From an uncultured Clostridia bacterium (lineage in GTDB: Bacteria > Bacillota > Clostridia > Christensenellales > UBA1242): a stretch of DNA of 46,347 nucleotides. The DNA lies in assembly GCA_947589655.1 (NCBI GenBank), contig CANQCE010000001.1:1-46347 (forward strand), given 5' to 3'. The translations under genes were made by a program, and so were the position numbers. Below the pieces are notes generated by a model that was not told the origin of the DNA, ran no database searches, and was given only the letters and a program-made list of their open reading frames with translations. Below, piece after piece: positions 25,833 through 39,301 of this stretch; position 1 is the first letter of the stretch; each line of letters starts with the position of its first letter.

Positions 25833-27557
25833 TCACAATTCCTCCTGTGAAAGTTGTGAAAGGGCTATCTCTTGATAAACTGGGCAATTGTGGATAAGTT
25901 CATCATGCGTGCCCATGCCAACCATGTTGCCGTTATCCAGCACAATAATTTTGTCGGCATCTTTAATTGTTCCAATGCGCTGTGCAACAATAAATTTCGT
26001 GGCATTATCTGTGTGTTTTTTAAGTGCCGTGCGCAATTTTCTGTCAGTTTTAAAATCCAAAGCAGAAAAACTGTCGTCAAAAATGAAAATTTCAGGTTTG
26101 CGCGCAATGGCTCTTGCAATGGAAAGGCGTTGCTTTTGCCCACCAGATACATTTGTTCCGCCCTGTGCAATTGGGCTATCTAGCCCCTTCCCCATGCGTG
26201 AAACAAAATTGCTTGCTTGTGCCACAGAAATGGCCGATTTTAGCCCTTCTTCGTCTGCGTTGTTGTCCCCAAAATTGACATTACTCCTCACTGTGCCTTT
26301 AAACAAAACTCCGCGCTGTGGAACATAGCCTATTTTTTTATTCAAGGTTTCAAAATCGTAATCTTTAACATTAACGCCATCCAAATAAACGTTGCCTTCG
26401 GTGGCATCGTAAAGCCTTGGAATAAGGTTGATAAGCGTGCTTTTTCCGCTGCCTGTTGAGCCAATAAACGCAATTGTCTGCCCCTGCTTTGCTTCAAAAG
26501 AGATGTTGTGCAGAACGTATTCGTCTGCCTCTGGATATTTAAACGAAACATTTTCAAAAACAACCGATGTTTTGCCGTCAAAGTTTTCATCTTTATAGCA
26601 ACCCGGAATTATGCTGTCTTTGGTGTCCAAAACCTCATTTATTCTTCGTGCAGAAACAAGCGCACGTGGCATCATGATAAAAATCATGATAAGCAGCATA
26701 AACGCCATTATAATTTGCATGGAAAAACTCATAAACTTGCTCATTGAACCCACAGTGAGCGGCGTGACAATGTAAGCACCTATCCAATAAATTGCCAAAC
26801 TAAGCCCACTCATTAAAAGGTTCATAAATGGGCTCATAATTGCCATAACACGCCCAGCAAACAGATTGGTTTTTGTTAAAATCTGGTTGTATTTGCCAAA
26901 TTTTGCGTTTTGATATTCCTCTGCGTTAGATGCGCGTATAACCCTGATGCCAGTAAGGTTTTCTCTTGTAACACGGTTGATATCGTCAGTCAACTTTTGA
27001 ACCTTTTTGAATTTTGGCAGAGCAATAAGCACAACAATTGTTACCATTAAAACAAGGGACACAATTACAACCGCCGTGGAAACTGTCCACTGCCAACTGG
27101 AATCCACAATTTTTGTTATTGCCCAAACAGCCATGATTGGCGCTTTGATAAGTGCCTGCAAGCCCAAGGCAATAAAAAATTGAACATTCATAATATCGTT
27201 TGTTGTTCTGTTGATAAGGCTGGCGGTGGAAAATTTGTTAATTTCTGCAAGCGAGAAGTCTTGAATTTTTGAATACACCTTCACGCGCAAATTGTAAGAA
27301 AGCCTTGATGCCAAATTTGCCACCAAAAACCCAACAACAATGGCACTTGCCAAACTGCCAAACGCACAAGCAAGCATAAATCCGCCATTTTTAAGCACAG
27401 ACGACATAACAATGTTTTCGCCAACTATTTCGTTTATCATCGCTTCGCTATATTCTGGCAAGGTTAAATCCAGCCAAACTTGCAAAACCACAAAACCCAC
27501 AATAGCGGCTATAACAAGATAATCTATCCATTTTAAATATTTCAGTAATTTCAGCAT
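25833..27557 (-). CDS. ABC exporter, fused permease/ATPase subunit (partner of 24020-25831)
   Basis: Walker A GSTGSGKST, signature VSGGQKQRLSIARA and Walker B IFIFDDSFSALD. There is a 1-nt gap to the downstream partner gene. Confidence 0.9.
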   Translation of the reverse strand: MLKLLKYLKWIDYLVIAAIVGFVVLQVWLDLTLPEYSEAMINEIVGENIVMSSVLKNGGFMLACAFGSLASAIVVGFLVANLASRLSYNLRVKVYSKIQDFSLAEINKFSTASLINRTTNDIMNVQFFIALGLQALIKAPIMAVWAITKIVDSSWQWTVSTAVVIVSLVLMVTIVVLIALPKFKKVQKLTDDINRVTRENLTGIRVIRASNAEEYQNAKFGKYNQILTKTNLFAGRVMAIMSPFMNLLMSGLSLAIYWIGAYIVTPLTVGSMSKFMSFSMQIIMAFMLLIMIFIMMPRALVSARRINEVLDTKDSIIPGCYKDENFDGKTSVVFENVSFKYPEADEYVLHNISFEAKQGQTIAFIGSTGSGKSTLINLIPRLYDATEGNVYLDGVNVKDYDFETLNKKIGYVPQRGVLFKGTVRSNVNFGDNNADEEGLKSAISVAQASNFVSRMGKGLDSPIAQGGTNVSGGQKQRLSIARAIARKPEIFIFDDSFSALDFKTDRKLRTALKKHTDNATKFIVAQRIGTIKDADKIIVLDNGNMVGMGTHDELIHNCPVYQEIALSQLSQEEL

Positions 27558-27690: not shown

Positions 27691-30600
27691 TTATTCTTCG
27701 CTTGGCAATTGCCATTTTAAAATTGGGGCTTGTCCAGTTTGCAAAAGCCAAACTTCTTCGTCAAACCCAAACTTTGCATCATATGGGGCATTTATAATTT
27801 CGCAGTTCTGCTCGCCGCCAAAGCCGCCAATCTCGCCACAAACATTTCCATCATTTGCTATTGCGTAGCAATATTGCATCCTGCCGGAAAGTTGCCCGAT
27901 GATTTGCCCATTTTTTAAGGTTGTGCTAATGCTCACTTGGCAGTAACTGTGTTGAACCGCATCCGCTGTTGCATGCGTGTATCTGCCATATAAGCCGCCA
28001 ACATATCCCTGTTTGCCTTCCGCCGTTATGCTACCAACCGCATAGTTGTTTTGCGAACTAAATTGCCCCTCGCCAATCAGTCCGCCGGCAACAACATTTT
28101 TTGCTTGCCCAGTTACATTAATCTGCGCATTGCTGAACACCTCTTTAACCGCATTATTCTTGCTGGAATCTTTTGCCAAAGCGCCGCCCACAACAACATT
28201 GCCGCTTGCCGCTTGCACATTAATTTGCCCAACATAAGAACTTTGCCATATTAGCGCGTTCTTTTTTTCGCTTGTGTTCTGCCCAACAATTCCGCCAACT
28301 GTCACATCTTTTTCAACCGTCAAGATTATTGTAACTCCGCTGGCACAATTTTTAATTTCTCCCACATTTTTGCCAACAATTCCGCCAACCACTTTGGCAT
28401 TTGTTAAGTTGACATTTCCATTTACAGTGCAATTTTCAATTTCTCCGCTGTTGATTTGTGCAAGTCCGCCAAATATGGAGTATTTCTGAGAAGTGGCATC
28501 AATTACAATGTTCAAATTTTCAACCGTGCCGACATTTTCCTTTAAAAGCGCAGTTTTCAAACCACTTATTGTATGCCCATTTCCGTTTAAACTGCCATAA
28601 AGTTTTATGCTTTTCCAAGTTCTATCTTTCATGTCCAAATCTTTTTCTAACACAAAACTGTAATGCCCTGCATTGTGCAAAAGTGTGGAGAATTCTTTCT
28701 CATTATTTATCTTCATTGTGTTTGGCACAAGATAAAAACTCAGCACAAAAAGTATCACATTTGTCAGCCCCAGCCCAAACAGCGTTAAGAACGCCCTTGC
28801 ATTTCTCTTTTCCAGAACACTTTTCTTAAGCACATAAAAAGTGAAATTGCCAATGGCAATGCAAACGCTGTAAATCATGGTGACAATCAAAAACGTCTCG
28901 TTAAAATACAGATACACCTGTTTTGGCGAGAAAAGCGAAACAATTAATAGCAGCGATGAAAACGCCAGCGGAAAAAACTCCAAAAAGATGCACAAAAATT
29001 TGAGCAGAACCATTCGCCTTCTGGCATTTTCCAAAACATCTTCTCGTGTTTTTATGCCTTTCTTTTCAGGTTCAACATTTATCGTTTTCAAGGACGGCTC
29101 TCTGCCCATTACAGAAAGCACGCTCACAGAGGTGTCAAGTGATAGGTCAAGTGCAGACAACCTTGTTTTAACCCTTGATACAACATCTTCGAACTGGTCA
29201 TAATCTCGGCATTTTTGTATCTCTTGCAAATTTTGTTCAAGCGGTTTAAGTTGCAAGCGATAGTAGTCCACGCCCTTTTTGGCTTTAAGCCCCTCTTGTT
29301 TTTCTATTTCCAGCAAAATTTTTTGATTTCTCATCAAAAAGTCGTTAAGCCTATCCATTATGCCTTTTTTATCATAATCATCAGGAACAAACTCTGAGCG
29401 CTCACCTTGATATAGGTTTGCGCGGCTAACAACGCCAGCGTAAAACTCGTCATGCTCGTCATCGCCAAGTTCAAGCAGCGTTTCCCACTCTGGCAAAGTG
29501 TCTGCCTTTGCTTTGGATGTTACAAGTTCTTGGTCGGTGCGGCAGTGGCATTTTATTTTTATAAGTTGCCAGTAAAGTTCCACCTTATCGGCACATTTTG
29601 AAATTGCAATGGTCATGTATTTTTCGGCTGGCTTAAAATATCGCCAAGCCTGAAATTTTTCTGCTATATCTTTGCAAAGTGCCCCTAACTTTTCGCCGTC
29701 CGACATATAAGAAAGATAAAAATCAATTTGTGCCTGCGCCTCTTGTAAATCAAAGAAAACAACTGGCATAATTTTGCTGATAACCGCACTGACAAAAGCA
29801 TCTCTGGCGTTTTGATTCATGTATTTAAGTGTGTCTTCAAGTTGCTGGCGGTCACGGTAAGTTAAAATGTCTTTTGTGCTTTTAAAGTTCCTCATTAATA
29901 TTGCAAGGTTGCTTTGTTCGTGCCCAGCATCAAGTTCCAAAATTTTATTGTAATAATCTTTATCGTCACTTTTCTGAGCAAGAGAAAAGTAAAAGTTAAT
30001 GAACCTGTCAACATCTTCTTTGTCAAAACATTTAACAACTTTTTGAACAAGTTCGCTGTCCAGCGTTTCTATTGCTTTGTTTTCTGCCGCAGATATAAAA
30101 TCTTCGCGGCTAGGGGTTTTATACGAGGCAAGTTCCAACAAAAACTGGTTGTAAAACTCCGCACTGTCCTGCTGCATTACAAGTTTTTCCCATCTTTCAA
30201 CAAAGTCCTCGGCAAAATTTTTGCTGGCATATCTTAAAATGTTTGAAATTTGTTCTCTGTCCGAAAAATTGCTCAGTTTTTCAAAGAATTCGTCCTCTGT
30301 TCTAATTTTTTTATCACAGAGCAGGCGCGCAAACAAAAGTTCGCTGCTGTATGGGTTTTCTTCCAAAGTTTCGTCCAAAATTTTGTCTGCCGTTTGAAAA
30401 TCGCCATTTTTTAATGCAAGAAACAGCCACTTTGTTTTGCCCTCGCTGCTAACCTCCACATTTTCAACACTGTAATGGCCAAGTTCGTTTGGAGAGATGC
30501 TTTCAACATTGGCATATTCTTTTTTCTTTGGATTAACTCTTTTTAAATTGATAGTTTCAATTTTGGCAGTTTCGATTGCCGCATTTTTTTCTTCAGTTTT

Positions 30601-31443
30601 TACAAGAGTTTCCAAATCTTGAAGCAAAGAAACGGAGTTTATATCAAAAACGCTTTTGCAATTTTGCAAAGTAGGCGGCAACTGCTCTTTTTTTATCTTT
30701 TTCACATCCACTATTAAAATAAGGCTTGTGGATGTTTTTTGTTTTTTGGAAATTCTTAAATTGTATCTTTCTATAATGTGGCGAAAAACGCCCAAGTCGG
30801 TCAAGGAATTTAACTGAAGAATGAGCATTTTACTTGTTTCTAATGCACGGAAAGTATCTTCTTCGTTCTCTTTTGTTTGCAAAAAAAGATTGTAATAAGA
30901 AAGTTCCAATTTGTTTAAAAGTTCGGCAATATTGTTATGTATTTGTGGGTTTTCATCCCCAGCCGTGCAAAAAATGACGTCATACAGTTGCTTTGACGAT
31001 GACATCTCATATGTTCGCTTAATTCTGTCCACCCTTTTTGCCAAATCGGTGTAACTTTTCGCTTCTTCTGGTGGGGCAAGTTCAACCGCCTTTAAAAAAT
31101 CTGAATCGCTTGAAAGGGAAGGTATGCTGTCCGCAAAAAAGCGTGGGCGTCTGGAAGTGCCCCTTTTGTTCGTGAACAAAACTATTTGATTTTTTGCAAG
31201 TGCTTTGCCAAAATAACCTTGAAAAGACAGAGGATACTGCTCGATGATGTTTTTAAATTGTTCCACAGCCTCATCGAACCTGAAGCCTCTGGAAAGTTCG
31301 TTTGCCAAAGCAATTAAAACTTCTTCCTCTTTAGAGGAATTTTCGTCAACATACAAAGAGCCACAGAACATACATTTAACCATGTTCTGCCCAACAACTT
31401 TATATTTTTTGCCTCCGCAGTTGTTGCAAACCCTTTCTCTCAT
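27691..31443 (-). CDS. 1,250-aa multidomain membrane protein: N-terminal zinc ribbon, long cytoplasmic TPR-like helical region, 3 TM helices, extracellular GLUG-repeat domain
   Basis: The ATG at 31443 follows AAGGA. Zinc ribbon CNNCGG...CMFCGSLY. TPR-like segments FRFDEAVEQFKNIIEQYPLSFQGYFGKALAK and GDFQTADKILDETLEENPYSSELLFARLL. TM block RRRMVLLKFLCIFLEFFPLAFSSLLLIVSLF / FLIVTMIYSVCIAIGNFTFYVL / AFLTLFGLGLTNVILFVLSFYLV. The positive-inside rule gives N-in/C-out. The C-terminus has YGSLNGNGHTISGL, then GGLAQINSGEIENC, VGGIVGKNVGEIKNC, VGGIVGQN, VAGGLIGEG and YVGGLYG (GLUG repeats). Confidence 0.85.
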   Translation of the reverse strand: MRERVCNNCGGKKYKVVGQNMVKCMFCGSLYVDENSSKEEEVLIALANELSRGFRFDEAVEQFKNIIEQYPLSFQGYFGKALAKNQIVLFTNKRGTSRRPRFFADSIPSLSSDSDFLKAVELAPPEEAKSYTDLAKRVDRIKRTYEMSSSKQLYDVIFCTAGDENPQIHNNIAELLNKLELSYYNLFLQTKENEEDTFRALETSKMLILQLNSLTDLGVFRHIIERYNLRISKKQKTSTSLILIVDVKKIKKEQLPPTLQNCKSVFDINSVSLLQDLETLVKTEEKNAAIETAKIETINLKRVNPKKKEYANVESISPNELGHYSVENVEVSSEGKTKWLFLALKNGDFQTADKILDETLEENPYSSELLFARLLCDKKIRTEDEFFEKLSNFSDREQISNILRYASKNFAEDFVERWEKLVMQQDSAEFYNQFLLELASYKTPSREDFISAAENKAIETLDSELVQKVVKCFDKEDVDRFINFYFSLAQKSDDKDYYNKILELDAGHEQSNLAILMRNFKSTKDILTYRDRQQLEDTLKYMNQNARDAFVSAVISKIMPVVFFDLQEAQAQIDFYLSYMSDGEKLGALCKDIAEKFQAWRYFKPAEKYMTIAISKCADKVELYWQLIKIKCHCRTDQELVTSKAKADTLPEWETLLELGDDEHDEFYAGVVSRANLYQGERSEFVPDDYDKKGIMDRLNDFLMRNQKILLEIEKQEGLKAKKGVDYYRLQLKPLEQNLQEIQKCRDYDQFEDVVSRVKTRLSALDLSLDTSVSVLSVMGREPSLKTINVEPEKKGIKTREDVLENARRRMVLLKFLCIFLEFFPLAFSSLLLIVSLFSPKQVYLYFNETFLIVTMIYSVCIAIGNFTFYVLKKSVLEKRNARAFLTLFGLGLTNVILFVLSFYLVPNTMKINNEKEFSTLLHNAGHYSFVLEKDLDMKDRTWKSIKLYGSLNGNGHTISGLKTALLKENVGTVENLNIVIDATSQKYSIFGGLAQINSGEIENCTVNGNVNLTNAKVVGGIVGKNVGEIKNCASGVTIILTVEKDVTVGGIVGQNTSEKKNALIWQSSYVGQINVQAASGNVVVGGALAKDSSKNNAVKEVFSNAQINVTGQAKNVVAGGLIGEGQFSSQNNYAVGSITAEGKQGYVGGLYGRYTHATADAVQHSYCQVSISTTLKNGQIIGQLSGRMQYCYAIANDGNVCGEIGGFGGEQNCEIINAPYDAKFGFDEEVWLLQTGQAPILKWQLPSEE

Positions 31444-31452
31444 CAAACATCC

Positions 31453-32601
31453 TTATTTCTTTTTTGTAGTTTTTCTCTTTAAAACATAGCCGTTAAGTTC
31501 TTGGTTATATTTTTCAAATTCAGCCATCTCTTTTGGCGTTACACTTGGCGGCATGGTTTCAAGCACACGCGTGAAATCTTCGTTTGTGACTAAAACAACT
31601 TTGTCGGTGGCAATGGCCTTTAAAAGAGGCTCGTCTTTGGCACGGTCGCAAAGTTCTTCAATGTCGGCGCCGCTATAATTTTCCGTTTGCGCAACAATTT
31701 TGTCTATATCAAAATTTTTGGCAACAGGCACGCCCTTCATGTTCTTTTCAAGCATAAATTTTCTGGCTGGCGCATCTGGAAGTGGAAGATAAATTTTCTG
31801 CGAAAAACGGCCAGAGCGCATGGCGGCAGTGTCCACATCCCAAGGCCTGTTGGTTGCGCCCAAAAGCAAAAGATTTGGGTTTCTTCCGGCAAAGCCGTCA
31901 ATTTGCTGCAAAAACTCGTTCACGCGCTTATCGTTGTGTGTGTCAATTCCACGTTTGCCGAACAAGCCATCCATTTCGTCAATAAAAATAATTGCCCTGT
32001 CTTGTTTGTTGGCTTCTTCAAACAGGGAGTTTATGTTTTTCTCACTTTCGCCCACCCATTTGCTGACAATATCTGAGCCCTTTACAGCATAAAATTTGGC
32101 TTGTGCCTCGTTTGCTATCGCTTTTGCAATCATGGTCTTTCCAGTTCCCGGTGGACCATACAAAAGGATTCCGCCGCCCGATTTTTTGCCATACATTTTA
32201 TACTTTTCTGGATATTTAACAGGGTTCAGCATTTTTATTGTAATTGCCCTTTTAACATCTTCAAGGCCAGCAACATCATCAAAACTGATGTTTGGAATTT
32301 GTGCCGTCTGCCACTGCTTGATGTCTTCGTCTTGTTCCTGTTTTAAGTCTTTTTTCTCTTGTTTTGCTGCCTTTGTGCTGTTGCCAAGGTTATCCGAAAT
32401 TTTAACCAATCCGCGTGCCCTTTCCATGCGAACTTCTTTCAGTTTCCCTTGGCTCTGCTTTGCCATTTGCATCATTGTTTCGCTGGCGAGCAAAAAATTA
32501 CGCTTTGCCAAGGCAACATTGCCCTGATTTCGCGCCTCTTTGCCCTTTCTCATGTAAAGTTCAAATGTGTCAGAAAGCACATTGATGTTTGTTTCTTTCA
32601 T
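31453..32601 (-). CDS. Vps4-like (meiotic-clade) AAA+ ATPase with MIT-like N-terminal helical domain
   Basis: The ATG at 32601 lies 5 nt after GGAG. Walker A GPPGTGKT and Walker B IIFIDEMD. Pore loop SKWVGESEKNINSLFEEA (compare Vps4 SKWMGESEK). LLGATNRPWDVDTAAMRSGRFSQKIYLPLPD (compare Vps4 LGATNIPW...RRFE.RIYIPLPD). C-terminal PPSVTPKEMAEFEKYNQELNG (compare the Vps4/spastin C-terminal helix SV...L..Y..W...FG). The N-terminal roughly 60 aa are helical and A/K/R-rich (KGKEARNQGNVALAKRNFLLASETMMQMAK). Confidence 0.85.
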   Translation of the reverse strand: MKETNINVLSDTFELYMRKGKEARNQGNVALAKRNFLLASETMMQMAKQSQGKLKEVRMERARGLVKISDNLGNSTKAAKQEKKDLKQEQDEDIKQWQTAQIPNISFDDVAGLEDVKRAITIKMLNPVKYPEKYKMYGKKSGGGILLYGPPGTGKTMIAKAIANEAQAKFYAVKGSDIVSKWVGESEKNINSLFEEANKQDRAIIFIDEMDGLFGKRGIDTHNDKRVNEFLQQIDGFAGRNPNLLLLGATNRPWDVDTAAMRSGRFSQKIYLPLPDAPARKFMLEKNMKGVPVAKNFDIDKIVAQTENYSGADIEELCDRAKDEPLLKAIATDKVVLVTNEDFTRVLETMPPSVTPKEMAEFEKYNQELNGYVLKRKTTKKK

Positions 32602-32613
32602 TTGCACTCCAAT

Positions 32614-33216
32614 TTATTTGTTATCGGCCTCGCTGTCAATCTTCTTGCGGATTTCTTCCATTTCTTTGTCGATATTTTCAGATGAAAGTTCGTCTTGGCT
32701 GGCTTGTTCCATGATGAACTTTTCAAGTTCTTTATCGCTCATGGCGTTGCCGTCTTTGTCTTTGCCTGCATTGTAGAAAGTTTCTTGGCTCATCTGCATA
32801 AAGTTGTCCATTTGGTCAGTTTGAGTTTCAACTGCAAGCATGGCTTCTTCAAACTGTGCCTGAATTTTGGTGAACTCTTTGGCATCAGCAAGTTTGCTCA
32901 TCTCCCTTGAGATATCGCTCATGCCACGAAGAAATTCGGATGTCATCATGGTAACATCTTTCATTTGAGCGGTAATTTCAAAATTCAAAAGCATTTCTTG
33001 TGCACGCTTTTGCTGCTGAACTGTCATTTTATAGCCAGAAAGCGCCAAGTTGAATTGTGCGTCAAGACCTTTCATTTTTGCACGTTTTGCCGCATCAATG
33101 AAAACCTGCTTTTGGTCTTCCAAGCGGTTAATCTGCTTGTTCATTGTGTTGATTGTTCTTTTAATCAACATCTTCTTTTCAATTTCTTTTTGTTGTTTAG
33201 ATTTAAAAATTCCCAT
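32614..33216 (-). CDS. ESCRT-III superfamily protein, Snf7/CHMP-like paralog A (200 aa)
   Basis: The N-terminus MGIFKSKQQKE resembles CHMP MGLFGK. The helical-hairpin region KQINRLEDQKQVFIDAAKRAKMKGLDAQFNLALSGYKMTVQQQKRAQ parallels CHMP2/3 (R.l.r....l....k.aakkG......iLAk..vr.rk). MSKLADAKEFTKIQAQFEEAMLAVETQTDQMDNFM parallels the Mn.p.i..im.eFe.q....e...e.m.d block. Acidic C-terminal tail DELSSENIDKEMEEIRKKIDSE. Confidence 0.7.
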   Translation of the reverse strand: MGIFKSKQQKEIEKKMLIKRTINTMNKQINRLEDQKQVFIDAAKRAKMKGLDAQFNLALSGYKMTVQQQKRAQEMLLNFEITAQMKDVTMMTSEFLRGMSDISREMSKLADAKEFTKIQAQFEEAMLAVETQTDQMDNFMQMSQETFYNAGKDKDGNAMSDKELEKFIMEQASQDELSSENIDKEMEEIRKKIDSEADNK

Positions 33217-33219
33217 TTT

Positions 33220-33828
33220 TTATTCCTCCATTTTAATTTTTTTCTTTTTTATTGGCTCAGCATTTTCTTCTAGCAAATCTTTTTGGTCGTTTAAAACATT
33301 TTCTTTTTCAAACAAGGTTAAAATCTCGTCTTCGGTTTTGCCAATGCCATAAATTGGTTGGTTAAGTTCATATGCCGATTGAACCTCTGTGAAAAGTTCG
33401 TCAGCCGAGGTGAGCACATCTTCCGAGGCAATTCTTGTTTGCAAGGCTTTGTTCAAAAATTTTGCCAATCTTTTTTGGTCAACCAGAAGTTCGCTTAAAG
33501 GCACTTTGGTTTGAGTTTTAAAGAATGTGTTGCTATCGTATGCCTCTTTAAGTTTGTTCATAAGCCTTATGTTGTAAAGCAAATACATACCTCGTTCAAT
33601 GCAAGTTTGCTTTTCTTCGTTCAGGTGCGAAATCTTTTTGGCGTAGAAAAGTTGCAAATCTTTGCTCTTTTCTTTTTTGCCCTTGTCAATAAGCGCGTCA
33701 ATTTCTTTCAGTTTTTGATAAACTTCCGCCTCCACCGTTCGCTCTTGCCGCTCTAATTCGCATATGGAATTAACAAGGTCCTCTCGGTTTAAGTTTTTAA
33801 ATTTGTTTCTTCTAAATGGCCACCACAT
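33220..33828 (-). CDS. ESCRT-III superfamily protein, Snf7/CHMP4-like paralog B (202 aa)
   Basis: The aromatic N-terminus MWWPFRRNKF is comparable to the Snf7 N-terminal membrane-insertion motif. All-helical coiled-coil core with LQLFYAKKISHLNEEKQTCIERGMYLLYNIRLMNKLKEAYDS (compare Snf7 AL.aLrrKK..E.ql..i.g....ie.q...le.a..n). The tail is acidic then basic. It is the same size as paralog A and separated from it by 3 nt. Confidence 0.6.
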   Translation of the reverse strand: MWWPFRRNKFKNLNREDLVNSICELERQERTVEAEVYQKLKEIDALIDKGKKEKSKDLQLFYAKKISHLNEEKQTCIERGMYLLYNIRLMNKLKEAYDSNTFFKTQTKVPLSELLVDQKRLAKFLNKALQTRIASEDVLTSADELFTEVQSAYELNQPIYGIGKTEDEILTLFEKENVLNDQKDLLEENAEPIKKKKIKMEE

Positions 33829-33831
33829 ACG

Positions 33832-34191
33832 CTAATACTGTTCCCCCTCTTTTATTTTGTAAATCCTCTCTAACAAGTCTTGATATCTTTTCTTTTGGTC
33901 CTCATCTGCCAAGGCAAGCGCCTTTTCGCACTCTGGCAAATATATTGCACTTTTGTATTTAACTGGCTCGGAATATAAAATGTCTTCATTTGAAATTTCA
34001 AACTTTGCCAGCATAAGCCCCCACCACGCATCTGCACAATCGGGGTCAAGTTCCAGCGCCAATTGAAAGTTCATGTTTGCCTGCTTGAAAAAGCCCTCTT
34101 TTAAATTTAAATAGCCAAGCGTCAACTCTTTTAAAGTGCTTTCTTTGTTTTGCTCTGGCACATTTTTTGATGTTAAATAGGTGCGTTTCAT
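33832..34191 (-). CDS. small TPR-like protein (119 aa)
   Basis: GYLNLKEGFFKQANMNFQLALELDPDCADAWWGLMLAKFEI is a TPR-type helix pair. The same W/F-G-x-x-L-A-K signature recurs in the 1,250-aa protein of the operon. An ATGA overlap with the upstream gene implies translational coupling. Confidence 0.65.
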   Translation of the reverse strand: MKRTYLTSKNVPEQNKESTLKELTLGYLNLKEGFFKQANMNFQLALELDPDCADAWWGLMLAKFEISNEDILYSEPVKYKSAIYLPECEKALALADEDQKKRYQDLLERIYKIKEGEQY

Positions 34192-34598
34192 CCGTTTTGT
34201 TCATCCTTCTTGCGTTGTATTATGTAGGCTTCAATTTCTTCCAGCACCCTAAAACACGTTTCTTGAGTGTTGTCTTTTGCCACCATAATTTTAAGGTCGT
34301 CAAGTTTGTTGGCAATTTTTGTGTCAACAAGTTGCACCTTGTCATTTGTGGTCGGATTGAAAAACCTGATTGTGTCTTTCACCTCCACAAGCCTGCGGCA
34401 AAGTGCATCGTTGCCGTTTGCATAAACAATTATGCTCTCCACATTTGCCACCATGTTTTCAATAAACTTTTTGTTCTTTATAATGCCGCGCGAGCCGCCA
34501 CGCTTTTCGTCAAGCGGCTTTTTTATGTATTCACGAACAATGTAGAAAACCGCAAGCCCAACAATGACAATTAAAGTGATAATGTATAATGCAAGCAT
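34188..34598 (-). CDS. N-terminally membrane-anchored protein (136 aa), function unknown
   Basis: TM helix MLALYIITLIVIVGLAVFYIV, then a basic stretch and a soluble helical domain. A strong RBS GGAGGGGG lies just upstream of the ATG. Confidence 0.65.
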   Translation of the reverse strand: MLALYIITLIVIVGLAVFYIVREYIKKPLDEKRGGSRGIIKNKKFIENMVANVESIIVYANGNDALCRRLVEVKDTIRFFNPTTNDKVQLVDTKIANKLDDLKIMVAKDNTQETCFRVLEEIEAYIIQRKKDEQNG

Positions 34599-34610: not shown

Positions 34611-35423
34611 TTATAACCTTGTCCCACAAGAAGAACAAAACTTTGAATTTTCTGGATTGACATTTCCACAAACAGGGCAAATATTTTTGCTGTTTGTTTT
34701 AAGCCCACACTCTGGGCAGAATTTGGCACCTTCGCTTAAAACCGCACCGCATCCTGCGCAAATATTGGTTTGTTTTCCGCTTTTTAACGCCTGCAATCTT
34801 TTTAAGTCTTCGCCATCTATAATAATGTTAAGAATGTTAAACGAAAACACGGCAATTCCATACTCGCTTTGCAACTTGTGCGACAGTTGCCCCAAAATTT
34901 TGTCCGACATCTCTTTTTTGCAATTGGAAAGTTGATTGTATGGCACACGATGTTGTTTTATGTAATCTAAAAGGCACAATTCTGTAACCGAAACAACATT
35001 AGATTGCAAACGCTCTTGCAATGCTTCCGCCGTTAAATTTTGAGAAACACCAATCAAATACAAGTAGCACTTTCTTGGGTCGCCAATTTGAACTTCAAAA
35101 TCGCCACTGAAACCAACGCGGTAATTTTCGCCGGCAAACTCGTCAAAAAATGTGAACTTTTGCGCCGTTCCCCAAAGCAATTTAAGTTTTGCCGTTTTGC
35201 TCATAAAAAGCACTTCAAGCACACTGTTTTCATCCGTTTCTTTTTCCAAAAAGTCAGAAATTTGATACTTTCCAGATTTTAAAGTTTGAAGCATTTGCCC
35301 ATCTTTGATAAGAATTGCATTGTGAGTTTCTGGCACAATAAGTGTCGTTTTAGGGCTTTGAACCGCCACTCTGGTGAAAAGTTGGGAATTACTCCCAGAA
35401 AACTGAATTCTATTTTGTTCCAT
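34611..35423 (-). CDS. SPFH (Band_7_1 / B. subtilis YdjI-like) domain protein with two C-terminal zinc ribbons
   Basis: The N-terminal pattern TLIVPETHNAILIKDGQMLQTLKSGKYQI...VLFMSKTAKLKLLWGT...YRVGFSGDFEVQIGDPRKCY...GIAVFSFNILNI resembles the YdjI/'virion core protein'-type SPFH family. The C-terminus ICAGCGAVLSEGAKFCPECG...ICPVCGNVNPENSKFCSSCG has two CxxC-N-CxxC ribbons. Confidence 0.65.
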   Translation of the reverse strand: MEQNRIQFSGSNSQLFTRVAVQSPKTTLIVPETHNAILIKDGQMLQTLKSGKYQISDFLEKETDENSVLEVLFMSKTAKLKLLWGTAQKFTFFDEFAGENYRVGFSGDFEVQIGDPRKCYLYLIGVSQNLTAEALQERLQSNVVSVTELCLLDYIKQHRVPYNQLSNCKKEMSDKILGQLSHKLQSEYGIAVFSFNILNIIIDGEDLKRLQALKSGKQTNICAGCGAVLSEGAKFCPECGLKTNSKNICPVCGNVNPENSKFCSSCGTRL

Positions 35424-35458: not shown

Positions 35459-35488
35459 AGTATAACAAAATTTTTTTATCAAAGTCAA
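35459..35488 (-). promoter_or_regulatory. candidate sigma-A promoter of the seven-gene ESCRT-like operon
   Basis: On the minus strand: TTGACT, 18-nt spacer, TGtTATACT (extended -10). The -10 lies about 35 nt upstream of the ATG at 35423, which has RBS GAGGGA. Confidence 0.4.
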
Positions 35489-35599: not shown

Positions 35600-36064
35600 A
35601 TGCAAAACAATATTGATAAACAAATTTTTAAATATCTAACCAGTCACAATGCCTCTGCCACAGCAAAAATTGAAGGCGGAAGCGCATATCCGCAAATTAC
35701 TGGCGTAGTGGAGTTTTATCAGTTACAAAACGGCGTTTTGGTTGTTGCGGACATAGACAATCTGCCGCAAACAGAAACAAACATTTTTGCCTTTCATATT
35801 CACGAGGGTGGCTCGTGCGAGAACGATTTTTCGCTAACTGGTGGGCATTACAATCCGCAAGGGGCAATGCATCCAAGCCACGCTGGCGATATGCCGCCAC
35901 TTTTTTCAAACGGCGGCAGTGCGTGGCAGGCCTTTTTTACAAACAGAATTTCTGTGAACGAAATAATTGGCAAAACGGTTATCATTCACGACAAGGTTGA
36001 CGATTTTACATCGCAACCGTCTGGAAATTCTGGGAACAAAATTGCCTGTGGAGAAATTAAATGA
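35600..36064 (+). CDS. sodC: Cu/Zn superoxide dismutase family protein, no signal peptide
   Basis: FAFHIHEGGSC, GGHYNPQG, HPSHAGDMPPL, VIIHDKVDDFTSQPSGNSGNKIACGEI. All Cu/Zn ligand positions appear to be present. The N-terminus MQNNIDKQIFKYLTSHNASA is not hydrophobic. Confidence 0.85.
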   Translation: MQNNIDKQIFKYLTSHNASATAKIEGGSAYPQITGVVEFYQLQNGVLVVADIDNLPQTETNIFAFHIHEGGSCENDFSLTGGHYNPQGAMHPSHAGDMPPLFSNGGSAWQAFFTNRISVNEIIGKTVIIHDKVDDFTSQPSGNSGNKIACGEIK

Positions 36065-36092
36065 AAAAGCACGGTTTTATCCGTGCTTTTTT
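36064..36092. terminator. bidirectional rho-independent terminator
   Basis: Stem GCACGG (36069-36074) / CCGTGC (36081-36086) with an A-run before and a T-run after. It lies between convergent sodC and the amidase gene. Confidence 0.7.
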
Positions 36093-36093
36093 A

Positions 36094-37125
36094 TTAATAA
36101 ATTGTTGCAATGGCGTTCCAGGTGTTTGGTCCAACAATTCCGTCCAGCGCCAGACCTTTTGTTGTTTGATACTGCCGCACTGCTTGCAAAGTTCTCTCGC
36201 CAAAAATGCCGTCAATGTTGCCAACATCAATCTGATTGCTGGAAAGAAGTTGTTGCAAAAACCTCACATACGCCCCACGGCTGCCCTGCCTGACAGTTGG
36301 ATAAGGTGCAAGTGTAAGCAGTGTGCGCCAAGTGTTCTGCCCAACAACGCCATCCACTGCAAGTGAGTTGTCTTGTTGGAACTGCCTAACGGCACTTTCT
36401 GTATTCGCGCCAAAAATGCCGTCAACTGCAAGATTGGCACCATATCCGTTTAACAAGAACTGCAAAAGAAAAACAAAATTGTTGTCATCTCCGCGGCGAA
36501 TTGTTGGGTAGTTCGCCAAATTGTCGCGCGGCAGATATTCCACCCCTAAAAAGTCGCACACGCCTTGGCAAGCCTCCTCGCCAACCTCGGTCTGCCACAA
36601 AGGGTTTAACATTCGGCGTGCTTCTTCCAGATTGGTCATAAACCCAGCCTCAATCAATGCTGATGGGCAGTTTACGCCAGAAAGCACCCCAACATCCAAA
36701 GTTTTAACTCCTCGCCCATTTTGTGGCGTGCCTTCAAGCAAATTTTCGTAAATATCTTGCGCCAGTGCACGGCTTTGGTTTGCACGCGGATTGGTTAAAG
36801 AATAAAAAACTTCAACGCCGGAGGTGTTATTAAATTCTTCGCCAAATGCGTTATACGCAAAAGTGACAAGCGCCGTCAAGTTCTGCCGGTTTATTCGCCT
36901 TACACGCTCAGAAATGCTTATGTCGGCATTTTCTGGCTTGACATCATAAACCGAAAACCCATTGCGCAAATCCGCCTCCAAAAATTTGTTTTTCGCTGCC
37001 CTGTTAAATTCGTTTTCCAAAATGGACCTATTAAGTCCCGGCACAACTGGCGTTCGCTTGCCAGGTGTTGGCGGCTGTGTGCCATGTTCATCGTTACCGC
37101 CTATGTAATAAATTTCGTTTGGCAT
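36094..37125 (-). CDS. MurNAc-L-alanine amidase (Amidase_3-like) with two C-terminal PG_binding_1 repeats
   Basis: Amidase-like core SGVEVFYSL...ALIEAGFMTNLEEARRM. Two peptidoglycan-binding repeats: FLLQFLLNGYGANLAVDGIFGANTESAVRQFQQDNSLAVDGVVGQNTWRTL and VRFLQQLLSS...IDGIFGERTLQAVRQYQTTKGLALDGIVGPNTWNAI. No signal peptide. Confidence 0.65.
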   Translation of the reverse strand: MPNEIYYIGGNDEHGTQPPTPGKRTPVVPGLNRSILENEFNRAAKNKFLEADLRNGFSVYDVKPENADISISERVRRINRQNLTALVTFAYNAFGEEFNNTSGVEVFYSLTNPRANQSRALAQDIYENLLEGTPQNGRGVKTLDVGVLSGVNCPSALIEAGFMTNLEEARRMLNPLWQTEVGEEACQGVCDFLGVEYLPRDNLANYPTIRRGDDNNFVFLLQFLLNGYGANLAVDGIFGANTESAVRQFQQDNSLAVDGVVGQNTWRTLLTLAPYPTVRQGSRGAYVRFLQQLLSSNQIDVGNIDGIFGERTLQAVRQYQTTKGLALDGIVGPNTWNAIATIY

Positions 37126-37229
37126 AAAATTCTCCTTTTCAGCATTTTATATGAAAATTACTTAAATAAATTGAATAAATTTAATTGTAGAAAGTTGACA
37201 TTATTTTTTAAAAGTATTATCATATCCCC

Positions 37230-39227
37230 ATGAAAAATAAAGAAAATGTGGTAAAAGAGATTTCTCTTAACAGAATTATTCTGCCAATTATGTTTATATT
37301 CATTTCCGTGTTCTTGGAAATGGTAAATTTTTTGTATATCGGCTTTAAGTCTGGCTCTGGCGCCCAACTGGTGTTCCCAGCCCAGTGGCTGTTTAACATT
37401 GGTGCAATTTTGGCAATTGCTGGGCTTATTTATCTTGTAAAAAGCCCTAAAGCAATGATTCCAATCTTCTTTTTGTTTTTATCACTCCAAATTGGCATAA
37501 ATGCTTTAAGTGCCAACATTTACGGAATTTTTGGCGACATATTTTCTATGGACTACATCAAACTTGGCAGAGAGGCTGGTGCTGCTGTTCGTTGGGAATA
37601 TATCGATTTTGGCTCAATTGCGATTTACTTTTCAATTTTGGCTGTTGTTATTGTGGCAGTGGTGCTGCTCTTTAAATTCAACAAACGCAAAGTTCACTTA
37701 AAAAGGTTGTCGGCTTTAAGTTTTTCGCTAATACTTGTTCTTCTTGTGGAGGCGTGCGGCATTACAAGTTATTCCTGCCAAATTGTTGCCGTTACAAATG
37801 CAGATTCTGAAACCATAGAGAACAACACAAGTTATCTTTATGAAAGTTTTGCTTTTAAAACCGAGGCTTATAAAGAATTTGGCTATTATGGTTTTTATTT
37901 GAAAAACCTTTGGGATATGTGTTTTGGGAACGTTAAAGCAAACGATGATGAGGTTGAAGAACTTAAAACATATATAGAAGAAGGCAAAACCACTTTTGAT
38001 GAACTTGATGGGCGTTTGGCTGACGACAATTTGATTGTAATCCTTTGCGAAAGCCACGAGTGGTTTGGATATGACCCAATTAACACCCCTAATGTTTGGA
38101 ACCTTATAAATGGCGGCGCAAACGCTTGTGTGTTCGACAATTATCACTCCCATAACAAAACCAACATAAGCGAAGGCATTGTTATGGCTGGCAACAAGGC
38201 CCAGCAAAACGATTTAAGCACCCTTGTTAAACATTATGGATACGATTACGCATACACTTTGCCAAAGCTTTTCAAGGCTGCCCATGCCGACAAAACAGAG
38301 GTCAAGGCAACATATTTCCACACTTGGAAACGCTCGTTCTATGACCGTGACGACACATATTTGGAAGACGGCTACGGCTTTGACGAATACATTTCTGTGG
38401 ACCAATATTCAAAGTATAACTCCAAATTCTTTGGCGATTGGGTTTGCGACAGCGATTTTATTGAAGAATTTAAAGACGATTTTGTTCCTGACCTTCAGGG
38501 CAATGGAAAATTTTTAAGTTTCTTTGCCACAATGACAACACATGGAACTTACGATTATGACAACCCTCGCTACAGTGACCTTTATGAAAAATATGACGAA
38601 AATTACGACGATTTTAAAGCCTGGTTTGAAGATTATTATGCTGAAAAATATGTTATCCCAAAAGATGAAGAATCCCTTTTGCAATTCCGCAGATACAAAG
38701 TTGGCATGATGGAATTTGACAGAACAATCGGCAAAATTTTTGACTTGTTAAAAGAAAAGAATCATCTTGATGATACAACAGTTGTTATGTTCGCCGACCA
38801 CAATGCATACATTGAAAACTTAACTTACAAACTTAAAAATGTTGAAAAAACCGACTTCTCAAACACAAAGGTTCACAATGTTCCGCTTATAATTTACAAT
38901 TCAAAACTCACGCCGGGAACATATTCCAATTTCTGCAACACTTACGATGTTTTCCCAACCATCGCTGAACTTCATGGGCTGTGCTACAACAAAAATTTGG
39001 CGCAAGGATACAACCTGTTCTCCGACAGTATAAAAAATTCGTTCTTTGCTTCCAATTTGGGTGGGATGTTCACAGATAAGTTTTACAGCAAAAACATTTC
39101 AGACGTGGTTTCGCTTAAAGAAAACTTTACAGCAGATGACCTTGCACAGTTCAAAAGCCAAGCAGAAAGGTTTTATCAGCGACAGAAAAAGTTAGAGGCC
39201 ATATATGTTAAAAACTTGGCAATTTAA
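37230..39227 (+). CDS. LTA synthase (LtaS) / sulfatase-family membrane protein
   Basis: Five N-terminal TM helices followed by an extracellular alkaline-phosphatase-superfamily domain (LIVILCESHEW, TMTTHGTYDY, VVMFADHNAY). The architecture is typical of LtaS-family phosphoglycerol transferases. Confidence 0.75.
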   Translation: MKNKENVVKEISLNRIILPIMFIFISVFLEMVNFLYIGFKSGSGAQLVFPAQWLFNIGAILAIAGLIYLVKSPKAMIPIFFLFLSLQIGINALSANIYGIFGDIFSMDYIKLGREAGAAVRWEYIDFGSIAIYFSILAVVIVAVVLLFKFNKRKVHLKRLSALSFSLILVLLVEACGITSYSCQIVAVTNADSETIENNTSYLYESFAFKTEAYKEFGYYGFYLKNLWDMCFGNVKANDDEVEELKTYIEEGKTTFDELDGRLADDNLIVILCESHEWFGYDPINTPNVWNLINGGANACVFDNYHSHNKTNISEGIVMAGNKAQQNDLSTLVKHYGYDYAYTLPKLFKAAHADKTEVKATYFHTWKRSFYDRDDTYLEDGYGFDEYISVDQYSKYNSKFFGDWVCDSDFIEEFKDDFVPDLQGNGKFLSFFATMTTHGTYDYDNPRYSDLYEKYDENYDDFKAWFEDYYAEKYVIPKDEESLLQFRRYKVGMMEFDRTIGKIFDLLKEKNHLDDTTVVMFADHNAYIENLTYKLKNVEKTDFSNTKVHNVPLIIYNSKLTPGTYSNFCNTYDVFPTIAELHGLCYNKNLAQGYNLFSDSIKNSFFASNLGGMFTDKFYSKNISDVVSLKENFTADDLAQFKSQAERFYQRQKKLEAIYVKNLAI

Positions 39228-39228
39228 A

Positions 39229-39256: not shown

Positions 39257-39301
39257 TTAAAAACTGTTGTTTTTTTACGCACAATTTGTTAAAATAATGC
39301 C

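Follow-up and report, generated by a model that had tools for sequence, protein, structure and literature searches.

A conserved seven-gene operon of Christensenellales that probably encodes an ESCRT-III/Vps4-type membrane-remodelling machine

The DNA analysed here, referred to as the window, is a stretch of 46,347 nt from an uncultured Clostridia bacterium (Christensenellales; UBA1242; assembly GCA_947589655.1, contig CANQCE010000001.1). On its minus strand, as are all the features discussed below, lie two adjoining genes that start with ATG and are separated by 3 nt, the first encoding a protein of 202 aa that starts MWWPFRRNKFKN (protein B, 33220..33828) and the second a protein of 200 aa that starts MGIFKSKQQKE (protein A, 32614..33216). 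A first-pass annotation had described them as a tandem pair of Snf7/CHMP-like proteins, and the sequence strings it quoted are all found in the corresponding open reading frames. It overlooked that the pair lies in a seven-gene operon, together with genes for an SPFH protein, a transmembrane (TM) protein, a TPR protein and a giant surface protein. The order is SPFH/zinc-ribbon protein, single-pass TM protein, TPR protein, B, A, ATPase and giant protein, with intergenic gaps of -4 to 12 nt, the ATPase gene beginning 6 nt past A. In the 176-nt gap upstream of the SPFH gene, the first of the operon, a consensus scan picked out a candidate promoter (35459..35488) consisting of TTGACT, an 18-nt spacer and a TG-extended TATACT, a pattern match of 10/12 positions plus TG. 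The surroundings are those of a chromosome, with housekeeping genes and, at the right end of the window, oriC-proximal markers.

The first protein of the operon (270 aa, 34611..35423) has an SPFH domain (Pfam Band_7_1, 2.3e-13) and two C-terminal zinc ribbons (Zn_Ribbon_1, 1.6e-13; DZR, 2.1e-9) and contains neither a TM helix nor a hydrophobic segment, which makes it a candidate YdjI-like scaffold. The protein of 136 aa that follows (34188..34598) has no Pfam or NCBIfam match and is a candidate membrane anchor, with one predicted TM helix at residues 3-21; its gene overlaps by 4 nt that of a small TPR-like protein of 119 aa (33832..34191), identified by weak TPR matches. In BLAST, the latter aligns with residues 51-143 and 603-675 of the giant protein (E=3e-4 and 4e-4), suggesting that it is a free-standing copy of a module repeated there, and in some loci the module is found only as part of the giant gene. 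The giant protein (1251 aa, 27691..31446) displays an N-terminal zinc ribbon (C-x2-C...C-x2-C at residue 7), TPR-like repeats (TPR_14, 2.7e-5), three predicted TM helices (818-907) and C-terminal GLUG-type repeats, weakly matched and predicted to be extracellular.

The ATPase, a protein of 384 aa (31453..32607), had been called Vps4-like. Pfam finds in it an AAA domain (residues 147-276, 2.8e-41) and AAA_lid_3, and the NCBIfam CdvC model aligns over the full length (11-369 against 7-366 of 370, E=1.2e-60) with 205 bits against an equivalog cut-off of 650, a score that does not support orthology to Vps4. Its architecture is nevertheless that of Vps4 and CdvC, in which a single AAA domain is followed by a Vps4-type C-terminal helix, here at residues ~340-370 (31498..31590), where Pfam Vps4_C scores 22.1 bits on a C-terminal fragment (cut-off 21.3) and 19.5 bits on the whole protein. 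At the other end, residues ~8-75 (32383..32586) would form a three-helix MIT-like domain, as seen with a profile of orthologues (A6) that matches 2mpk, an MIT domain from the chitin synthase of an oomycete, at E=0.0066, and the MIT domains of VPS4A/VPS4B at E 0.5-0.9. The Pfam MIT model (PF04212) is matched by four of 22 orthologues (best E 1.5e-4) and not by the window sequence alone. The HMM scores of other families are similar (CDC48, 222 bits; PAN, 205; FtsH, 197), the core is 41% identical to VPS4A and 36% to p97 D2, the best PDB matches are p97/Cdc48 D2 domains, and in the C-terminal part katanin and D2-only p97 come out about level. The arginine-finger (SRH) region reads RSGRF, as in the classic AAA clade. 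Judged by sequence, the ATPase appears Vps4-like in architecture, with a core between Vps4 and Cdc48-D2; what holds of the earlier description is the putative MIT-like N-terminal domain and the Vps4-type helix, while the score lies below the CdvC cut-off and the protein is as near to Cdc48/p97 D2 as to the Vps4 clade. The ATPase is also the only protein of the operon with PADLOC matches, to the IetA/IteA defence ATPases; these concern the generic AAA core, and assignment to a known defence system was rejected on that ground.

As a single sequence, protein A has no match in Pfam, NCBIfam, PADLOC, PHROGs or the PDB, nor has its close-family profile in the PDB. Its family extends to 550 database clusters at E<=1e-3, and the wider-family profile A3 retrieves CHMP2A (7zcg_B) as top PDB match (E=1.4e-6, positions 10-150 against 7-143), next CHMP1B, CHMP3, CdvB and Vps24, ESCRT-III proteins accounting for nine of 19 PDB matches. 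In agreement with this, 17 of 96 relatives of A match Pfam Snf7 (PF03357; best E 1.4e-9), each of the other Pfam families listed being matched by a single relative, and none matches PspA_IM30 (PF04012), the comparison that the first-pass annotation had proposed. A chain leads from the A1 profile to P0365 (E=1.5e-16) and from there to Snf7 at 28.9 bits (gathering cut-off 27.3), and hhalign aligns family A with CHMP2A at a probability of 93%, reversed decoys and PspA remaining at noise, in a register that is stable as the family deepens (E 0.06, 0.006 and 2e-7). Protein A is therefore, on the evidence of its family profiles, a real Snf7-family ESCRT-III protein, nearest to the CHMP2/CHMP3 (Vps2/24) class, which bears out a likeness previously noted by eye. 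The assignment is transitive, via relatives of 23-53% identity, A itself being only ~15% identical to CHMP2A. A PspA/Vipp1-type identity was rejected for both A and B: there are no PF04012 matches (none among 30 relatives of B either), and hhalign and hmmsearch comparisons with an E. coli PspA reference stay at noise level.

The AlphaFold2 models of A and B are almost entirely helical, as had been claimed. That of A, of moderate confidence (pLDDT 67.7), has helices at residues 7-48, 52-106, 112-148, 161-173 and 180-198, which fits an alpha1-alpha2 hairpin and three more helices. Foldseek results were counted as supporting evidence only, for A as for B; in the search of the PDB with A the best E is 0.11, not significant, and generic helical bundles are mixed in, the ESCRT-III matches (E of at least 0.11) including CdvB (probability 0.8) and Asgard ESCRT-IIIB (probability 0.96, TM 0.49/0.57). 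The charge distribution is that of a basic core with an acidic tail, net +9 over residues 1-50 and -13 over residues 101-200 (family means +8.9 N-terminal and -11.3 C-terminal). Residues 1-7, MGIFKSK (33196..33216), are hydrophobic and basic and represent a candidate membrane-insertion element: F4, K5, S6 and K7 are invariant among close relatives, and the consensus M-x-x-F-K-S-K is still present at 40-50% identity. At the C-terminus, residues 179-193, SENIDKEMEEIRKKI (32638..32682), coincide with the last predicted helix and form a putative amphipathic MIM1-like helix, whose resemblance to the MIM1 motif, (D/E)xxLxxRLxxL(K/R), had been proposed. The helix is conserved and its spacing fits, the hydrophobic and terminal-basic positions being retained in I182-x3-M186-x2-I189-R190, but Glu185 replaces the MIM1 Arg. 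The tail consensus at ~40% identity is D-x-x-I-[DE]-K-E-[LM]-x-x-[LI]-[KR]-K-K, and a strict MIM1 regular expression is found in the last 32 aa of 22 of 100 A-family representatives, as against 0 of 480 internal windows.

Protein B is probably a highly diverged ESCRT-III-fold partner of A. Its family comprises 400 database clusters at E<=1e-3. The single sequence has no match in Pfam, NCBIfam, PADLOC, PHROGs or the PDB, and neither a close profile (A2) nor a broad one (A5; 30 sequences, 42-83% identity) gives a significant Pfam or PDB match, the broad profile producing chance matches only, including a SusD homologue and BBE; comparisons with Snf7, CHMP4B, CHMP2A, CHMP3 and PspA give no signal above reversed controls. 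The AlphaFold2 model, again of moderate confidence (overall pLDDT 64.2), has a hairpin of helices 15-52 and 56-99 (pLDDT 78-85), several shorter helices and a helix at 166-189, the part outside the hairpin having a pLDDT of 43-64. CdvB2 filaments head its Foldseek list (probability 0.82-0.90 for most chains, TM 0.40-0.45, E 0.24), in which Vipp1, CHMP3, CHMP2A-CHMP3 and Ist1 are also prominent, with a best E of 0.19, not significant; as with A, the list contains generic helical bundles too. The two proteins had been called paralogs, which stays only probable: BLAST finds no similarity (E=0.3), hhalign no match between profiles of close relatives, and HMM-to-sequence cross-searches of the two families over all open reading frames of 80 loci are negative. 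With family A, hhalign aligns B colinearly over ~158 columns (E=3e-3 and 7e-4), above all 120 shuffles, a weak link (probability 10-26%, z about 3-5 against shuffles) that runs from the common M-x-x-F-K-S-K N-terminus to the acidic tail. Divergent B orthologues start MWPFKSK, thereby sharing the N-terminal motif of A, and the B family has a charge asymmetry of +3.7 N-terminal and -11.1 C-terminal. The first-pass annotation had staked its reading on an ESCRT-III profile match and a predicted hairpin; A has both, the match by way of its family, while for B, with the hairpin, a weak link to family A and no significant match to an ESCRT-III model, the term Snf7-like is only probable.

Among 80 Christensenellales loci, A and the ATPase occur together in 79, and they do so also in distant Bacillota and Acetothermia loci. 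The operon as a whole is kept in about 70-79 of the 80 (SPFH 74, TM 69, TPR 57, B 77, A 80, ATPase 79, giant 72), and the flanking SOD, amidase, LTA-synthase-like and MnmE genes in only 0-2; because the operon genes recur and the flanking genes do not, the gene set is a conserved unit across Christensenellales. The giant proteins of the 72 loci are 21-51% identical, and B is directly upstream of A in all the loci that have it but one (L054). In most Christensenellales loci, and in the distant Bacillota and Acetothermia ones, the AAA gene is directly preceded by a Snf7-like gene, the giant gene intervening between the two in some divergent Christensenellales loci. A genome scan with A4, an alignment narrower than the very divergent A3, showed that at least 153 species-level genomes of gut Christensenellales carry the family, and the order of the genes is stable. 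An origin from a phage or mobile element was rejected in view of the absence of relatives on viral contigs, the housekeeping context and the oriC-proximal markers.

Other Bacillota and Acetothermia have related modules, in which two or three Snf7-like paralogs go with Band_7_1 and an AAA ATPase; several contigs with distant relatives are too short to inform. Band_7_1 is present in L083, L086, L088 and L090, and the analogues of the giant protein are LRR_5, DUF6273 or WG_beta_rep proteins. Trypsin-like proteases lie beside or within the modules in L082, L083, L086 and L090, and RuvB-like ATPases are fused or adjacent to a Snf7-like domain. Also found next to or inside such modules are genes for NERD, for a TIR_2 protein, for a phospholipase of the patatin type and for Ser/Thr kinases along with PP2C, as well as HepT/Polbeta toxin-antitoxin genes; genes of an FHA-kinase and a phosphatase are seen in some distant bacterial loci.

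Compared with the eukaryotic system, the family A profile is colinear with CHMP2A over alpha1-alpha4, and A shares with CHMP2A/CHMP3 a size of ~200 aa, a basic core and acidic tail, a hydrophobic/basic N-terminus and, at the C-terminus, a predicted helix whose spacing fits MIM1; the ATPase resembles VPS4 in its putative MIT-like domain, its single AAA domain and its Vps4_C helix. The differences are that the host is bacterial, that no ESCRT-0/I/II or ubiquitin components are present in the window and that the SPFH, TM, TPR and giant surface proteins are unrelated to eukaryotic ESCRT components. Moreover, the ATPase appears to be without the beta-domain insertion of VPS4, its lid aligning gapless to p97 D2 and its alignment to VPS4A ending at 316, and VPS4 has RRRF in the SRH where the window ATPase has RSGRF. 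The archaeal Cdv/ESCRT loci are similar in layout, with ESCRT-III gene(s) directly upstream of an MIT-AAA ATPase in one operon and multiple paralogs per locus, and the structures that the A and B models match best in fold include CdvB and CdvB2. However, no winged-helix (ESCRT-II/CdvB-type), CdvA-like, adaptin-appendage or GOLD domains were detected in the window, and the ATPase is far under the equivalog cut-off for archaeal CdvC. Sulfolobus CdvB uses a MIM2-type motif, whereas the tail of A is MIM1-like. The archaeal 'Main' and 'Halo_FHA' types resemble some of the distant bacterial loci in their FHA-kinase/phosphatase genes. SPFH/zinc-ribbon proteins occur in archaeal ESCRT loci, including those of the 'Meth_adaptin' type, which, like the window, combine a zinc-ribbon-bearing SPFH protein with a further zinc-ribbon protein and with a protein whose extracytoplasmic domain is linked to a TM segment (Makarova et al. 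2024, PMC10936438).

Within bacteria, a comparable partnership is that of PspA with YdjG, YdjH and YdjI in Bacillus subtilis, where YdjI and YdjH recruit PspA to the membrane (PMC8581546). There too, an ESCRT-III-superfamily protein goes with small membrane proteins and a soluble Band_7_1/SPFH protein with a C-terminal zinc finger, YdjI being of the same SPFH subfamily (PF13421) as the window protein. In contrast to the Psp operon, the polymer-type protein of the window is Snf7-type rather than PspA_IM30, and the Bacillus operon is without a Vps4-like ATPase, a second ESCRT-III-like gene and a giant TPR/surface protein. VPS4-like AAA+ genes that adjoin a 'TPR repeat and 6TM' gene have been reported in several bacterial lineages, as have occasional bacterial Snf7 homologues near AAA+ ATPases, and it was concluded that snf7 had been displaced in the bacterial VPS4-like loci (Ravi et al., bioRxiv 10.1101/2020.09.24.301986). 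As far as loci compared by description can tell, the window resembles the former in that a TPR-plus-TM giant gene follows the ATPase gene, and differs in having two ESCRT-III-like genes upstream, which are invisible to single-sequence Pfam. With its MIT-AAA protein and SPFH partner it differs also from the reported Snf7-AAA+ associations, in which the AAA+ protein has two domains and the operons are those of ABC transporters.

An ESCRT system has been defined by vps4 and ESCRT-III genes together (PMC10936438), and this is the arrangement found here, where an ESCRT-III gene and the gene of an MIT-bearing Vps4-like ATPase share a conserved neighbourhood. We estimate at roughly 0.7 the probability that the locus is a seven-gene bacterial operon for an ESCRT-III/Vps4-type membrane-remodelling machine. 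In the model that we favour, A and B would co-polymerise at the cytoplasmic face of the membrane, where the soluble SPFH protein of YdjI type, together with the small TM protein, would recruit and anchor them, just as PspA in Bacillus subtilis depends on YdjI and YdjH, and TPR modules, free and on the giant protein, might act as adaptor or cargo links. A hexamer of the ATPase would dock via its MIT domain on the MIM1-like helix of A and extract subunits, which could result in polymer turnover and in membrane constriction or repair. As for the output, we rank sorting or budding of membrane bearing the giant protein, or membrane repair, above cytokinetic abscission. A stronger version, that this is a bona fide bacterial ESCRT machine, in which Snf7-type subunits are remodelled by an MIT-bearing Vps4-like ATPase, which was acquired from archaea or is as ancient as the archaeal systems and which performs ATP-driven, reverse-topology scission of membranes in Christensenellales and other Bacillota, is put forward tentatively, at slightly less than even odds. 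If true, scission could serve the budding of giant-protein vesicles, the export of DNA vesicles (in view of the relatives with FtsK/RuvB fusions) or final abscission.

The same machine might instead belong to an envelope-stress, membrane-damage or anti-phage/conflict system, patching or shedding membrane in a PspA-like manner rather than acting in constitutive sorting or division. The proteases, RuvB-like ATPases, NERD, TIR_2, patatin, kinase/PP2C and HepT/Polbeta genes of the distant modules point in this direction, as do the SPFH partner, whose YdjI type cooperates with PspA when Bacillus responds to stress, and the resemblance in generic AAA core between the ATPase and IetA/IteA. The latter is, however, explained by the common AAA fold, and the other proteins of the operon have no PADLOC match. 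Neither the operon of the window nor any of the 80 related Christensenellales loci has such effector genes, the context is chromosomal and housekeeping, the family is absent from viral contigs, and its occurrence in at least 153 species genomes with stable order is a pattern commoner among core cellular functions than among defence islands, so that we regard this possibility as rather doubtful.

We are about as sceptical of a reading in which A alone is ESCRT-III, while B, not related to it, would be a coiled-coil protein serving as adaptor or nucleator, a functionally CdvA-like or ESCRT-II/Vps20-like bridge between A and the membrane or the SPFH/TPR partners that does not enter the polymer. 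It would account for the lack of Pfam and PDB matches even with the 30-sequence profile, of signal to Snf7, CHMP4B, CHMP2A, CHMP3 or PspA beyond reversed controls and of A-B matches in HMM cross-searches. It would also fit the distant modules, in which the position of B is held by a 203-aa protein undetected by either profile (L083) or by proteins of 291-344 aa (L086, L088 and L090), two clear A-type paralogs being present in L085 and L088. Yet the size of B and its predicted hairpin-plus-helices agree with ESCRT-III, structures of which are prominent in its Foldseek list, its charge asymmetry is as in A, and the colinear alignment to family A beats all shuffles. More improbable still is a merely incidental ESCRT likeness, with the ATPase a Cdc48/FtsH-like unfoldase (e.g. 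for quality control of the giant protein) and A and B structural coiled coils that do not interact with it. The p97/Cdc48 D2 domains among the top PDB matches, the similar CdvC and CDC48 scores, the classic-clade-like SRH and the modest MIT support (E=0.007 with the profile, 4/22 orthologues) could be cited in its favour, but it leaves unexplained why most of the Christensenellales loci, and the distant ones too, should have a Snf7-like gene directly before the AAA gene, and why the tail of A should carry a motif of MIM1 type that is enriched family-wide. We know of no purpose of this motif besides MIT binding. The single AAA domain, the above-threshold Vps4_C match and the full-length CdvC alignment also speak for an ESCRT-III/Vps4-type machine.

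A literature search found no specific prior description of the operon. Current reviews restrict the combination of Snf7-type ESCRT-III with a Vps4-like ATPase to archaea and eukaryotes, and it is stated that bacteria appear to lack a Vps4-like ATPase and to operate the PspA/Vipp1 branch alone (PMC7619361). With a Snf7-type subunit bearing a MIM1-like tail beside an MIT-AAA ATPase, the operon would be a counter-example, bearing on when the ESCRT-III/Vps4 partnership originated or on how frequent inter-domain transfer has been; transfer from archaea is plausible because Christensenellales share the gut with methanogens. The operon also connects the SPFH-PspA partnership of Bacillus to the SPFH proteins of archaeal ESCRT loci, and a cultivable carrier, if found, would give a bacterial host for studies of ESCRT mechanics. 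Finally, the fusions of FtsK and RuvB-NERD to a Snf7-like domain suggest that ESCRT-III-like polymers are coupled to DNA motors, a connection that had gone unnoticed.

Proteins A and B are encoded by two minus-strand ORFs that start with ATG and are separated, as the first-pass annotation had claimed, by 3 nt (B, 202 aa, 33220..33828; A, 200 aa, 32614..33216), and all the sequence strings quoted there are found in these ORFs. Both proteins are near-wholly helical by structure prediction and widely conserved. Their genes are the fourth and fifth of a seven-gene run on the minus strand with intergenic gaps of -4 to 12 nt, which starts with genes for an SPFH/zinc-ribbon protein (35423..34611), a single-pass membrane protein (34598..34188) and a small TPR-like protein of 119 aa (34191..33832), and ends, after B and A, with an AAA ATPase (32607..31453) and a giant protein of 1251 aa (31446..27691). 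Upstream of the SPFH gene, pattern matching picked out a candidate promoter-like sequence whose -10 element carries the TG extension.

Taken as a single sequence, A has no match in Pfam, NCBIfam or PDB, and a profile built from its nearest homologs, at 81-92% identity, matches no PDB entry. When 1.84 billion representatives were searched exhaustively with a profile, 357 relatives emerged, and an alignment of A with 95 full-length ones (23-53% identity to A) gave a profile whose PDB search returned human CHMP2A (E=1.4e-6), covering nearly the whole core, followed by CHMP1B, CHMP3, CdvB, Vps24 and CHMP1A, so that ESCRT-III proteins represent 9 of the 19 matches. When the 96 members of this alignment were scanned singly, 17 matched Pfam Snf7 (best E 1.4e-9), any other Pfam family listed was matched by one member apiece and PspA_IM30 by none, a result in favour of Snf7 in the comparison that the first-pass annotation had proposed. 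One relative, P0365 (E=1.5e-16 with the close-family profile), scores above the Snf7 gathering score. Alignment of the family to full-length CHMP2A with hhalign gave a probability of 93%, with a register that is constant across close, medium and broad alignments of A (E 0.06, 0.006 and 2e-7, respectively); this alignment agrees with the PDB search. Reversed decoys and E. coli PspA gave noise-level scores. On the strength of the family profile, the Snf7 matches and hhalign, A is therefore a Snf7/CHMP-type ESCRT-III protein nearest to the Vps2/CHMP2 class, which bears out its original by-eye alignment to CHMP2/CHMP3.

Further hallmarks of the family are recognizable in the sequence of A. The N-terminal part is strongly basic and the C-terminal part acidic, a charge split found family-wide, the MGxFKSK N-terminus is conserved and the hydrophobic and basic spacing of the C-terminal helix fits MIM1. 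Of 100 family representatives, 22 carry the strict MIM1 consensus within their final 32 residues, at a constant distance from the C-terminus, compared with 0 of 480 internal control windows. The MIM1-like spacing of the tail proposed earlier is upheld, and a Glu occupies the Arg position in the window protein, which makes its motif MIM1-like and non-canonical. The AF2 model of A, of moderate confidence (pLDDT 67.7), displays the expected hairpin and three helices, and its Foldseek matches include CdvB, CHMP1B, Vipp1 and Asgard ESCRT-IIIB, none of them statistically significant.

Whether B is a Snf7-like paralog of A, as had also been put forward, is less clear-cut. No similarity to A was found by BLAST or with close-family profiles, a profile of B orthologs (down to 42% identity, taken from 80 genomic loci) matched nothing meaningful in PDB or Pfam, and the B family gave no signal against Snf7, CHMP4B, CHMP2A, CHMP3 or PspA. 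On the other hand, AF2 confidently predicts a hairpin of helices 15-52 and 56-99 (pLDDT 78-85) with shorter helices after it, and CdvB2 filaments (probability 0.9, TM 0.41-0.45), Vipp1, CHMP3 and CHMP2A-CHMP3 are prominent in the Foldseek list of this model, with a best E of only 0.19-0.24. Profile-profile comparison of the B and A families gave a colinear alignment of ~158 columns (E=3e-3 and 7e-4), spanning from a common M-x-x-F-K-S-K N-terminus to the acidic tail, with a score of 25.8 that was reached by none of 120 shuffles (column shuffles scored 13.1±2.3 and block shuffles 16.7±2.8). The charge asymmetry of B is the same as in A. Together, the hairpin, the Foldseek list, the profile alignment to A and the charge asymmetry favour an ESCRT-III fold, and we consider it moderately probable that B is a diverged ESCRT-III paralog. 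In a distant Firmicutes locus (L083:8377-8988), a gene in the B position directly upstream of a Snf7-like gene encodes a 203-aa protein undetected by the A or B profile (E>0.2), whose start MFWRKNKNKK echoes the MWWPFRRNKFKN of B.

The adjacent ATPase had been described as Vps4-like, which holds for its architecture but not for its family-level score. According to Pfam it has a single AAA domain and lid, the CdvC model spans its full length (residues 11-369) and the Vps4 C-terminal helix clears its Pfam threshold when the C-terminal fragment is scanned alone. The N-terminal ~75 residues have a conserved three-helix pattern; the top PDB match of the ortholog profile is a MIT domain (2mpk, E=0.0066), followed by the MIT domains of VPS4A and VPS4B, and Pfam MIT is matched by 4 of 22 orthologs. 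However, the protein is below the cut-off of the CdvC family (205 vs 650 bits), with similar scores for CDC48, PAN and FtsH, and its nearest solved relatives are p97/Cdc48 D2. Core identity is 41% with VPS4A and 36% with p97 D2. The domain architecture predicted from these profiles is nevertheless Vps4-like.

MIT domains are TPR-like helical bundles and it may be speculated, for this reason, that the TPR modules of the operon are additional binders of ESCRT-III tails. The small TPR protein amounts to a stand-alone version of a module that recurs within the giant protein's cytoplasmic part; the segments of the giant protein homologous to it include at least residues 51-143 and 603-675 (BLAST E ~3e-4), and in some related loci the module is present solely within the giant gene. 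Besides three TM helices, the giant protein carries GLUG-type C-terminal repeats that are predicted to be extracellular. The SPFH protein resembles B. subtilis YdjI in that it belongs to the Band_7_1 subfamily, is soluble and carries C-terminal zinc ribbons. In B. subtilis, YdjI and the membrane proteins YdjG and YdjH bring PspA to the membrane (PMC8581546).

A genome scan recovered A relatives from at least 153 species-level genomes. Viral contigs yielded none, and the window itself is chromosomal, near a mnmG-rsmG-parAB region. The 80 loci retrieved all come from gut Christensenellales-type Clostridia (Candidatus Caccovivens, Candidatus Coproplasma, Christensenella and Catabacter). A is present in all 80, the ATPase in 79, B in 77, the SPFH protein in 74, the giant protein in 72, the TM protein in 69 and the TPR protein in 57, while the genes flanking the SPFH side (superoxide-dismutase-like, amidase, LTA-synthase-like and MnmE) are found in only 0-2.

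Comparable modules, found in other Bacillota and in a genome of Candidatus Acetothermia, house more distant relatives of A (25-38% identity) and comprise Band_7_1, a single-domain AAA ATPase, giant surface-repeat proteins and two to three Snf7-like paralogs. Trypsin-like proteases recur as an extra component, and kinase, patatin or TIR genes lie beside some modules: FHA-Ser/Thr kinase, PP2C and RCC1-repeat genes in L083, a kinase and a patatin phospholipase in L089 (Candidatus Acetothermia) and a TIR_2 protein in L090 (companion genes at L083:3089-6762 and 11408-15608, L089:9864-15415 and L090:3447-4229 and 12228-13382). These companions resemble bacterial conflict systems as well as the kinase/FHA associations of certain archaeal ESCRT loci. 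The A-family Snf7-like domain is also the N-terminal domain of fusion proteins (P0298, P0300, P0301, P0304, P0309, P0312, P0314, P0315, P0324 and P0374; genes at L086:9001-11403, L088:9001-10863 and L082:245-2089), the partner being an FtsK_alpha/FtsK_SpoIIIE DNA translocase or a RuvB-like ATPase (RuvB_N/RuvB_C, sometimes with a NERD nuclease), and it stands where the membrane anchor of FtsK is usual. At least two fusion genes (L086 and L088) belong to modules that also encode Band_7_1, a single-domain AAA ATPase and an unfused Snf7-like protein. L090 has its Snf7-like and RuvB-like parts in two adjoining genes.

What has been established is the family to which A belongs, the domains that make up the ATPase, and the existence and conservation of the operon; the following scenario is a proposal. 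A, probably with B, would polymerise at the cytoplasmic side of the membrane, where the SPFH and small TM proteins would recruit and anchor the polymer and the TPR modules tie this polymer to the giant membrane protein. The ATPase would dock via its MIT-like domain on the MIM1-like tail and pull out subunits, thereby driving remodelling. Three biological roles are suggested: sorting or vesicle budding, by the giant surface protein that is constantly present; a damage response, by the YdjI-type SPFH protein together with the conflict-type genes of distant modules; and action at membrane necks traversed by DNA, by the FtsK fusions.

Archaeal ESCRT loci with SPFH/zinc-ribbon partners have been reported (Makarova et al., PMC10936438), and a 2025 review states that bacteria appear to lack a Vps4-like ATPase (PMC7619361). 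Ravi et al. described VPS4-like genes that, in some bacteria, adjoin a 'TPR repeat and 6TM' gene, inferred that snf7 had been displaced in such loci and noted occasional bacterial Snf7 homologs close to other AAA+ proteins (bioRxiv 10.1101/2020.09.24.301986). Our findings suggest that this lineage, at least, does have Snf7-type genes, whose divergence hides them from single-sequence searches. A targeted literature search found no description of this bacterial ESCRT-III/Vps4-like system, and the locus would be a new bacterial variant of ESCRT-III/Vps4 systems.

Elsewhere in the window, the largest gene is a single 3842-aa ORF (5612-17140, minus strand) that lacks any Pfam match at E<=0.001. The cumulative GC skew has its minimum near 36-38 kb (features at ~36000-40000 and 39302-45233), where gene orientation turns from mostly minus to plus strand, with mnmE, mnmG, rsmG, parA and parB homologs downstream; these three features suggest a replication origin region a few kb from the ESCRT-like operon, a proximity that is not conserved (MnmE lies within 8 kb in only 2 of 80 related loci). 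A heterodimeric ABC exporter pair (ABC_membrane and ABC_tran, twice; 24020-27557, minus strand) lies 133 nt past the giant gene and co-occurs frequently on that side, its genes being found in 54 and 49 of the 80 loci, which may reflect functional linkage or mere lineage synteny. A similar pair (L085:13121-16820) is found in GCA_965647235.1 near a minimal module made up of an AAA ATPase gene and two Snf7-like genes in tandem (L085:11516-12991). This module is directly upstream of a homolog of SpoIVA, a spore-coat morphogenetic ATPase, a position that may point to some connection with the membranes of engulfment or sporulation.
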